Positions 58,028 through 61,000 of a DNA stretch of 64,000 bases are shown one piece after another. A model generated the notes under the pieces. It worked only from the letters and a program-made list of their open reading frames with translations, had not been told where the DNA came from and did not search any database. This DNA is from a virus (taxonomy: Duplodnaviria; Caudoviricetes), in the IMG/VR virus record IMGVR_UViG_3300020050_010116, positions 16,580 through 80,579 of that record. One strand, 5' to 3'. Every line of letters starts with the position of its first letter. Position 1 is the first letter of the stretch. The position numbers were made by a program, and so were the translations under genes.

Positions 58028-61000
58028 TTAGTGAGTTTCTGCCCAATTTGCACCAGTATTCCAAGCAATTCCTAAATCAACTCTTAATTTAAATTGATCT
58101 GTAGCTTGCTTAATACCTGATCTAAAAGCTTCAATAGCAATATTTTCTTCAGTAATATAAAAATAATCATCTTTATGACCGACATCACAAGTTAAATTAT
58201 TATCATGTACGTATTGTTCTGCTCTTACTTCATGAGGTAAAGGAAGCTTCTTTATTGATTTTAATAAAGAAGAAATTTCTTGTTCATCTAACAGAGGATT
58301 TTTAGTCTCTTCTATAATTTCATCAATAACAGCTTGATGTATTTTATCATCACCTTCTTGAGGATAGAATTTCTTAATATCTAAAAGTCCTTTAGAAACA
58401 GCTACTTGCAATTCGTCATGATATACTATCATTAAGAAAACTTTAGCATCTTGTTCAGAATGTAATAAAGGATCACCAAGATAGCCTTGTTCCTCAAGTT
58501 TCTCACACATGTAAACTACTGAATATTTACACAATATGGCCCCGGCAGATTGAAATAATAAATTAATTAAACTATGTTTACTTCTAGCCTTGAGTTTGCG
58601 CCCATCAATGCCAAGAAGAAAATCTTTACCAGTACTTTCCCAATACTGTTCAACTTTTTCTTTTAATTCAGCTAACGCAGGAACAGCTTCCCAGTATTTA
58701 TTATATAAATCCTCAGCTTCAGGCAGCGAGCAACCCAACATTTTGGCAAGTTTTGCAGCTTGAGCCCCGATAAAGGGTTGCATAAGAAAAACTCTTAGCT
58801 TCATCTCTAGTAATACCAAGTTTTCTGGCATTAACACTATTACCTGTTATAAAAATATGGTTATTTCTTTTACAAATAATATAAGATGTATCTACTGTTA
58901 CACAATAAACAAAGCCGTCGTAATCTTTTTTAGAAATAACAGTATGTTTTAAATCACTACCTTTTAAGTTAGGTGATTTAAAAGGAAGAAAAACCTGATA
59001 CACAACTTCTTCTTTAGAGTAAGCTGCACGTTTAATCTTCTTTTCATAGAGCATTGACTGTACTTGATATTTGCATAAATCAGTCTGTATTTGTTCTAAG
59101 AACTGTCTATCAGAACTTTGTAAAACAAAACCTGATTTCTTTTTAATTACATTAGTGTATCCGTTATTTGTTTTAACTTTAATTGCATGATCAGTAAACT
59201 TATCTAGTACAGCTTGGATAATATGTTCATGATAAATATCATTACCATAAAGTAAGCCGCTTGTAGGTATAATACCAGACTCAGTAGTCAAGTCTTCAGC
59301 CAAAACATCAACAAATTTTTGTTTGTTTTTATCGTAAACTACATTTCTATGCTCAGGAGTCATTAGAATAGAAAGTCTATCACCTTCCACACTAATCATT
59401 TCACCTTTATACTCTTGTTTAATGTATTCAATAGGATAAGAAAAAGTAATATTATTGTTAGTAGAATCCCATTGAGCTACATTAGTATCAATAGAGATAT
59501 CTCTGAAATACTGCCAACCTTGTTTAGTAAGTATTTGAGTTTCTTCATCTAAGCAATTGCCGCTAACAAAAATAGAATCATTTTCTTTAACAAGAATGTA
59601 AGTACTAGGAACGGACACACAGCCAACCAACTCTGTACTTTCATATTTTGCACATAATAAATCAGAAACAAATATTTTCTGAACGGCGGCCTCATTTAAT
59701 AAAGAGTCTTCGTTAGTGCTGTAAATATAATAGTCGCAATACTCATGTAAATTTTTAGATAGATTTTCAGCAAGAATAGTAAAAGTTGTCTCAGTGTATT
59801 TATTAAATAATAATACACGGTGCTTAGAAGTCATTGTCATACTAAATGCATCATTTTCTGTATAAAATGAATACATAATGTCTTCAAAATTATTTCTTCT
59901 GACAAGAATATTTATAGGTGTAACATAACTAAATGTTTTAGTTTCAGCGCACCACTGAAGAACTTTATCAGTATAAGTAATTGTATCTAGAGTTTTCCAA
60001 CCTTCTGGTGTTAATAGTTGATTTGTAACAGGAAACGCATGAAGATCATTAGGCTTAACAGCAACTAACGATTCAGCTAAAGCTTCTCCATCTTTATAAG
60101 GAATAACAAAGTGACCCATTACACGAGCCTCTAAGCTGGCAAAGTCAGCTCCAAGTTGTACAAAGTAACGGCCGTCCGCAGCAAATAAACCTCTTAAAGG
60201 TTTACCGTACACTGAAGTAACACGGGGTATATTACAAATTTTTGAATGTTTATCTTTTTATTCTTTAGGCATCACTAGTACCTAAACGTTAATATTAACA
60301 GCTTTATGTTTCCATAAAGAATAGACTATATCTTCACTTTACTTATTTAATTAAGAAGTGCAACCTGTTTCATGTGTCAATAGTTTACACATTACGTCAT
60401 AATAGACTAGTCGTTGAACGTTCTTCCTATCTTGTTATCACAACAATATTTAGAAGCTTCGCTGCTGATTGTCTGTATTTAGCAATTTTTAAACAATAGA
60501 CGCATATTTTTTCAAATTTCGTTTTAGTTTGCTAACCTAACCAGAGTTTCCAGCAATTAAGGTTGTTTTACTTCGCCAATAAATTTAACGAAAACTAGCA
60601 GCGCCCATAGTAAAAGCAGGAGTTGACACACGGCCATCTTCTCTTACAAGAGACAAATAGCCTGTACTAGGTTCTCCATCTTCATCTTCAACACCACCTG
60701 CAATAGAATTTCTTCTGTGTCGGTAAGTTAAATACTTAGTAACATCTAAAGCAAAACTAGCTTTTTCTCCAAGTTTAACGAGATTAGGGCATAATTCCTT
60801 ATCAGTACCAACTCGAATCATAGGACTAACAGGTACTTTATAAAAACCAGAAGATTTGTACTTAGACTCTAAATAATCCTGTAACTCGTCTGAAGAAACT
60901 CCAATAATTTTTAAACGAGCATTTCTATAAGGCCCGTTAAGAGTACTTTCAACATAACGAGTTATAGTTTCTACTGTTTTTTCTGGAGTTAGTTTTTGCT

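Follow-up and report, generated by a model that had tools for sequence, protein, structure and literature searches.

Can two inteins share one insertion site in a phage polymerase, and can the first of them splice when it begins with Ala? This question is raised by polA, the gene for the family A DNA polymerase of a jumbo phage, in a 64,000-nucleotide stretch of viral DNA (Duplodnaviria; Caudoviricetes) that we call the window. The window covers positions 16,580 to 80,579 of IMG/VR record IMGVR_UViG_3300020050_010116, an 80.6-kb viral record with a CheckV completeness estimate of 34%. The gene is on the minus strand and is split over three open reading frames (ORFs). Positions 58839-60038 of the minus strand encode 400 residues without a stop codon, and these form a 161-residue intein 1 and a 239-residue intein 2 in the order ..KPNDLH, intein 1, intein 2, SVNARK... 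Asn161 of intein 1 is followed immediately by Cys1 of intein 2. The original prediction, made from this DNA, had announced two complete inteins with zero spacing at these positions. Translation agreed on both inteins and on the positions, and the strand is corrected here to minus. We conclude that polA probably carries two separate functional inteins at one codon boundary, with intein 1 having re-invaded an occupied site and likely splicing by a class 3 route. The main features are:

58719-60212, minus strand: middle ORF of polA, with motif A and both inteins (ORF list)
60039-60212, minus strand: N-extein segment, from motif A (GADFASLEAR) to ..KPNDLH, aligned to T7 DNA polymerase up to residue 501
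59556-60038, minus strand: intein 1, a 161-residue mini-intein, AFPV..FVSGN (translation; HINT fold in the model; orthologues)
59619-59621, minus strand: TGT codon of Cys140 (F:4), proposed initiating nucleophile of intein 1, aligned to residue 124 of the AceL NrdHF intein
59553-59555, minus strand: shared cysteine codon TGC, which serves intein 1 as +1 residue and intein 2 as Cys1 (sequence; invariant column C172 in alignment A1, which holds 25 tandem and single alleles)
58839-59555, minus strand: intein 2, 239 residues, CLDE..FITGN (translation)
58773-58838, minus strand: start of the C-extein, SVNARKLGITRDEAKSFSYATL, which begins motif B and the O-helix, aligned to T7 DNA polymerase from residue 517 (TRDNAK)

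The empty site KPNDIH-S[IV]NARKLGI, without an insert, is found in about 50 homologous polA proteins, and this uninterrupted sequence supports the predicted extein junction DLH/SVN. Aligned by profile to T7 DNA polymerase, the protein matches up to residue 501 and again from Thr517-Arg518. The insertion site follows a His that we take to be the equivalent of T7 His506, in the nucleotide-binding pocket just before the O-helix. A megablast of the polA region against GenBank phages gave no match, and the 497-residue ORF, used as the sole query against viral contigs, found no related loci.

The key residues of intein 1 are Ala1, Thr70 and His73 in block B, Val75 (B:12), Cys140 (F:4), and Ser159-Gly160-Asn161 in block G, followed by Cys at +1. 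It thus has the Thr-x-x-His, block F, and block G Asn with Cys+1 of an intein, together with a HINT fold and insertion at a conserved site for which insert-free alleles exist. The predicted Ala1 start stands in the translation; because the same residue recurs in independent assemblies, we rejected a sequencing error as its source. Between its blocks B and F, intein 1 of the window lacks an endonuclease domain. Such an insert, about 160 residues long, is present in intein 1 of the related sequences P0004, P0006, P0007, P0009-11, P0013, and P0091, and the homologous insert of P0020 passes Pfam LAGLIDADG_3 (24.6 bits; cut-off 22.5). Intein 2 has Cys1, Thr66 and His69 in block B, Cys218 (F:4), Thr237-Gly238-Asn239, and Ser at +1, which include the class 1 set of Cys1, Thr-x-x-His, terminal Asn, and Ser+1. 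It lacks the Asp at F:4 and the penultimate His that are common, but not obligatory, in class 1, and it has Cys218 and Gly238 there, as do most members of its family; either Cys1 or Cys218 may start its reaction. Its central insert of about 100 residues resembles a degenerate LAGLIDADG-type domain; the Pfam matches (Intein_splicing, E of 2.7e-5; LAGLIDADG_3, E of 0.013) are both below the Pfam cut-offs. The two inteins are homologous, as had been proposed, with 28-40% identity and BLASTP E values of 4e-11 (N halves) and 3e-6 (C ends). The dual role assigned to the shared cysteine also agrees with the sequence and with the invariant column C172.

The pair is not confined to the window. We searched 5.8 billion proteins with a word index, ran intein 1 by itself as a full HMMER query against 1.8 billion representatives, and scanned viral contigs and metagenome contigs. 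Metagenomic or viral sequences with the zero-spacing pair number at least 17 and include P0003-7, P0009-13, P0089-91, P0094, L007, and L093, at identities of 31-99%. The polA of L007, on a 242.6-kb viral contig, is one open frame through both inteins to the C terminus, and the tandem alleles P0007 and P0091 have no frame break. Therefore, assembly error and gene decay fail to explain the tandem layout. Intein 1 alone, placed before an extein residue, was not found in intein-1-specific pattern scans of the viral and metagenome contigs or in the 1.8-billion-protein search; all informative matches were tandem, and the others were cut by contig ends.

Two sequences have a spacer between the inteins. 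The metagenome protein P0093 reads, over residues 21-572, PND, intein, CH, intein, SLNA, with a spacer of two residues. Its second intein has Cys1, forms a long branch within the intein-1 clade, and lies directly before the extein Ser. P0105 has a similar two-residue spacer (SE) between inteins in a different host protein.

Five allele pairs differ mainly by the precise presence or absence of intein 1. P0005 has intein 1 and P0008 does not; their N-exteins are identical at 75 of 75 residues, and 257 of 258 residues are identical after the insert. The flanks of P0013/P0096 and P0012/P0134 are 96-98% identical where comparable, the N-extein overlap of P0012/P0134 being 10 residues. P0090/P0122 is a looser pair with flanks 83-89% identical, and the fifth pair, judged by eye, is the P0094 fragment and Acinetobacter phage ME3, which has a single intein at NDIH, CLSLD. 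The single-intein alleles at DLH/C that the original prediction proposed to look for thus exist, since phage ME3, P0008, and P0122 each have an orthologue of intein 2 as the only intein at this site. Judged from these sequences, the resident is intein 2: it is of the ordinary Cys1 type and belongs to a phage family found alone at this site elsewhere. The two units also vary independently. Intein 2 of the window is 99% identical to that of P0004, and the N domain of intein 1 is 49% identical. The endonuclease is present or absent independently in each unit, as seen in P0012, where a mini intein 1 precedes a long intein 2, and in P0013, where the sizes are reversed.

We then turned to the structure. 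Single-sequence AlphaFold prediction of the 420-residue cassette gave a predicted local distance difference test score (pLDDT) of 34, and an AlphaFold2 model built with alignment A1 had a mean pLDDT of 81. The model has two separate HINT domains, with low confidence at the termini, in one loop, and at junction residues 172-174. Intein 1 is modeled as a complete HINT fold (model residues 11-171; pLDDT of about 80-90). Model residues 9-174 superimpose on the AceL NrdHF intein (PDB 6zgq) with a Z score of 22.4 and a root mean square deviation of 1.6 Å over 151 of 154 residues. The next match has a Z score of 17.2, and many other inteins score 14-17. Intein 2 (model residues 175-410) matches endonuclease-bearing inteins with Z scores of about 15. 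At the sequence level, 6zgq is the sole PDB match of an intein-1 profile (E of 1.4e-6); with a whole-locus profile (E of 1.7e-14) it is the only intein among the best 60 of 73 matches.

The AceL NrdHF intein starts with Ala1, has Met at B:12 where canonical class 3 inteins have Trp, and lacks His at both F:13 and G:6. It splices efficiently, and mutagenesis identified Cys124 as its internal branch point (PMC7891396). In the profile alignment, Cys140 of intein 1 falls on this residue, with ..G-C-V-S-V-P.. against ..H-A-L-S-V-P.. of the C124A crystal construct. Intein 1 has two elements of the class 3 signature: a position 1 without a nucleophile (Ala1) and Cys at F:4 (Cys140). It has every element of the AceL NrdHF pattern, namely, Ala1, a non-Trp residue at B:12, Cys F:4, no His at F:13 or G:6, and similarity in both sequence and structure. 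No member of the intein-1 clade departs from Thr/Ser B:7, His B:10, Arg B:11, Cys F:4, Gly G:6, Asn G:7, or Cys+1, and B:12 is V or I. Position 1 is A, S, K, or C and is therefore unlikely to be the nucleophile. Cys F:4 is present in all 20 family members without Cys1. Sequence and model are best read as placing intein 1 among the non-canonical class 3-type inteins, with V-C-S as its triplet. The block F Cys route that was originally proposed thus remains the preferred one.

A different route for two functional inteins is that Cys+1 attacks the His-Ala1 bond directly, in the manner of the class 2 KlbA inteins, and Cys140 does not. Class 2 inteins do combine Ala1 with Cys+1 (PMC4031507), and every intein 1 has Cys+1. 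However, the class also has Asp F:4 and Ser G:6, and all of its members are KlbA orthologues (PMC4031507). Intein 1 has Cys F:4 and Gly G:6 and is not a KlbA orthologue, so we consider a class 2 route unlikely. The structural comparison points the same way, because KlbA (2jmz) gives a Z score of 13.5 versus 22.4 for AceL NrdHF.

Alternatively, intein 1 could be a splicing-dead relic. Ordinary class 1 inteins lose splicing when position 1 is Ala. In this scenario, intein 2 alone would splice, and the polymerase would keep a 161-residue insert, be cleaved, or be non-functional. A polA intron and a frame break also suggest decay at first sight. However, the intron and the frame break are missing from the similar tandem alleles L007, P0007, and P0091. 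We rejected polA as a pseudogene, since the intron and the frame break are each missing from some tandem alleles and the exteins have a ratio of nonsynonymous to synonymous substitution rates (dN/dS) of 0.04. Compared with L093, which is 97% identical in DNA, intein 1 has 6 synonymous and 3 nonsynonymous differences, a dN/dS of 0.13 resting on nine differences, versus about 1 expected for a relic. Intein 2 has a dN/dS of 0.12 and the N-extein 0.04 in the same comparison. Under neutrality, a hand binomial calculation with 79% nonsynonymous sites gives a P of about 0.004 for three or fewer nonsynonymous differences out of nine. Purifying selection acts on intein 1. Its other catalytic positions are invariant across orthologues at 31-49% identity, and its closest solved relative, AceL NrdHF, has Ala1 and splices efficiently (PMC7891396). 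The endonuclease-bearing copies, the presence/absence pairs, and the independent exchange mark a live mobile element. Finally, the insert adjoins the nucleotide-binding O-helix, at a site that is empty in about 50 homologues. A dead intein 1 is thus very unlikely.

The intron, the frame break, and the two outer parts of polA lie as follows:

60585-62003, minus strand: N part of polA, containing the exonuclease (ORF list)
60254-60585, minus strand: group I intron in polA, upstream of the inteins (Rfam RF00028, 77 bits; gathering score 50)
58766-58772, minus strand: one-base (+1) frame break TAT-C-GGG in the Tyr-Gly of motif B, 22 codons past the inteins (sequence)
58028-58837, minus strand: C part of polA (ORF list)

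The 332 nucleotides of the intron are precisely absent at L093:2242 of the metagenome relative L093. This sequence reads ..GAASFR-YKHSKICNIPRV.. straight through, which gives the exon junction of the intron. The frame break is common to P0003 and P0004, and phage ME3 and many homologues read ..SFSYAxxYGAQ.. in one frame. Judged from the protein sequences, R-S-S in P0003 and P0004 versus R-G-S in the window would fit a synonymous GGG to GGA change in the shifted frame. Beside polA, a free-standing ORF (62878-63654, plus strand) has a duplicated H-G-x-F-x-Q...H-L-K-G-x-G-C-x-x-C-G motif and a C-terminal G-I-L-Y-V-L-E...I-K-I-G-I-T segment. It resembles a homing endonuclease of the T5orf172/GIY-YIG type.

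The original prediction had left two origins open, duplication or re-invasion. A tree of 63 HINT domains, built as that prediction had proposed, separates them. All intein 1 sequences form one clade (Shimodaira-Hasegawa-like approximate likelihood ratio test, 99). Their partners fall in three clades, which also hold single inteins of this site. The tree has 122 columns and many open forks, and our conclusions are therefore drawn from the starred branches only. A tandem duplication of one resident intein in this lineage would explain why the units are homologous and have family motifs in common. However, intein 1 is nearer to the intein 1 of distant phages (about 49-60% identity) than to its own neighbor (28-40%), and all intein 1 sequences stand in one clade apart from the partners. 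An ancient single duplication with many later losses is conceivable but does not account for the contrast between the window and P0004 (49% versus 99%). We thus give duplication little credence. The single intein-1 clade, the three partner clades, the presence/absence pairs, and the independent exchange favor repeated settlement, so re-invasion is the part of the earlier proposal that we retain.

That the 400 residues are one composite intein with duplicated HINT halves, excised once from His/Ala1 to Asn239/Ser, is hardly credible: the units are related and have no extein residue between them, but each has its own blocks A, B, F, and G and its own complete HINT domain, the partners of intein 1 come from three unrelated clades, either unit can be mini or full-length whatever the form of the other, and intein 2 stands alone at the same site in near-identical alleles.

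Members of the same intein family are also found outside polA. P0095, P0099, P0112, P0145, and P0172 have Ala1 or Lys1 and stand alone at the ..FME site of ribonucleotide reductase-like proteins, in a clade with Cys1 members. These sequences indicate that the N-terminal nucleophile was lost more than once in this intein family. In polA itself, a sister group of polymerases (P0014-P0024 and P0102) has a single intein two residues upstream (KPND, C...GN, CH), with the extein Leu/Ile changed to Cys. Therefore, the homing site has shifted by 6 nucleotides inside one hot spot. Another 20 residues on is a third intein site (SF[SG]YA, C...GN, C[ML]YG). It is filled in L093 (L093:3715-4069), P0006, P0024, and P0111 and empty in the window, where the frame break is three codons past it. 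A terminase-like gene on another viral contig (L087:2501-3700) has an intein in its Walker A loop (GGSAG, C...GN, SGK). A second insert three residues later starts with Ala and ends with THN before a T.

We propose the following route for the pair, with intein 1 as a class 3-type intein. Cys140 (F:4) would attack the His-Ala1 bond. The N-extein would then move onto the thiol of Cys1 of intein 2, the residue that comes next, and Asn161 would cyclise. The product would be an ordinary intein-2 precursor, which is the natural allele in P0008-type phages. Intein 2 would then splice onto Ser+1 to give ..DLH-SVN... A relay is conceivable, because the product of Asn161 cyclisation, before the S-to-N shift, is chemically identical to the first thioester intermediate of intein 2. 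The reverse order of splicing is also chemically possible, since the +1 residue of intein 2 is Ser, Cys, or Thr in every tandem allele. In published class 3 inteins, C-terminal cleavage is tightly coupled to the earlier steps (PMC7891396, PMC5222942). Such coupling would limit premature Asn161 cyclisation, which would cut the polymerase in two.

The most likely way for intein 1 to have arrived is homing driven by an endonuclease, with a composite DNA target that joins the N-extein end to block A of the resident. The intein 1 of the window would have lost its endonuclease afterwards. At the boundary of the N-extein and intein 2, the window and phage ME3 have 44 of 60 bases identical, with proteins only about 36% identical. 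The block A motif of the resident inteins is C-[LFY]-[SD]-x-[DE]-T-[EQ]-[IVL]-L-T. The conserved boundary DNA and block A would offer an endonuclease a stable composite site. We tentatively suggest that intein 1 may represent a "second-storey" lineage, a possibility that we rate as less likely than not. The endonuclease of such a lineage may recognise the N-extein end and the resident block A, so that it spreads among filled alleles that are immune to the resident's endonuclease. The class 3 thioester on the resident Cys1 could couple the two splicing reactions as a relay.

Several points weigh against our proposal. Intein 1 lacks the Trp at B:12 and the Thr at G:5 of the class 3 signature and has Val75 and Ser159 instead. 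V-C-S misses two of the three positions of the Trp-Cys-Thr (WCT) triplet, and intein 1 is therefore kept out of canonical class 3. Mutating Thr G:5 in class 3 inteins can have minimal effect (PMC5222942). The Ser at G:5 had been noted beforehand as unusual; it is indeed present, but it is normal in the family, whose 171 members include 63 with Ser and 90 with Thr, and the K1 lineage of intein 1 has Thr. Cys F:4 is also found in 139 of 151 family members with Cys1. Because it is a family trait of Cys1 members too, Cys F:4 alone is no proof of a class 3 route. One lineage of intein 1 (P0009-11) has Ser1 and could act as class 1. P0093 indicates, from its sequence, that the intein-1 lineage has no strict dependence on a downstream intein. 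The dN/dS of intein 1 has the small basis given above. Sequence and comparison show how the pair is built, that its units are homologous, and that they are mobile and under selection; we infer that they splice, in which order, and what DNA the endonuclease would cut. The proposed homing target comes from protein sequences and one DNA comparison, that with ME3.

The significance of the pair depends on both inteins splicing. In the usual view of the homing cycle, a filled site is protected from invasion, whereas the polA alleles suggest that a filled site can become a target. A dedicated intein lineage appears to have settled repeatedly on at least three different residents, in an essential polymerase and beside the nucleotide-binding helix. 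The pair would be a natural test case for splicing chemistry, because one cysteine would be both the acceptor of one reaction and the initiator of the next. The upstream intein would also belong to a small and poorly studied group of class 3 inteins without the WCT signature. If splicing holds true, two orthogonal back-to-back mini-inteins would be useful for multi-segment protein ligation.

Literature searches (open-access papers and bioRxiv) found no natural zero-spacing inteins, only engineered constructs and the neighboring sites of haloarchaeal MCM. Four known systems are closest to the polA pair. The AceL NrdHF intein is a naturally split, non-canonical class 3 intein from a phage-like contig of an Antarctic lake (Hoffmann et al. 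2020, PMC7891396; PDB 6ZGQ). Like intein 1, it has Ala1, a non-Trp hydrophobic residue at B:12, Cys F:4 in C-[VL]-S-V-P, no His at F:13 or G:6, and a terminal Asn, and it is the best and only clear PDB relative. However, AceL NrdHF is split in two genes, has a ribonucleotide reductase host, Thr G:5, and Ser+1, and stands alone, whereas intein 1 is contiguous, has a polA host and Ser G:5, and takes its +1 residue from the start of another intein. The canonical class 3 inteins (mycobacteriophage Bethlehem DnaB, Msm DnaB-1, and Mch DnaB-1; Tori et al. 2010, PMC2807308, PMC5222942, PMC7664689) are like intein 1 in that a position 1 nucleophile is unneeded, Cys F:4 is the proposed first nucleophile, and the origin is phage. 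Intein 1 differs from them in having V-C-S for WCT and a penultimate Gly, and its structural match to them is only ordinary (Z scores of 13-15).

The haloarchaeal inteins MCM-a and MCM-d, like the polA pair, lie close together in one replication gene, and these neighboring inteins affect each other's homing (PNAS Nexus 2023, PMC10643990). The MCM-a and MCM-d sites have extein residues between them and each its own extein +1 nucleophile, whereas the polA pair has zero spacing and one cysteine for both. Twintrons are introns inserted into introns, and their removal is sequential. They resemble the polA pair in that one self-splicing mobile element has another as part of its landing site. However, twintrons act at the RNA level and are nested, whereas the polA inteins act at the protein level and abut. 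What the polA pair adds is an upstream intein without an N-terminal nucleophile, in a clade of its own, with five presence/absence pairs and an estimate of selection.

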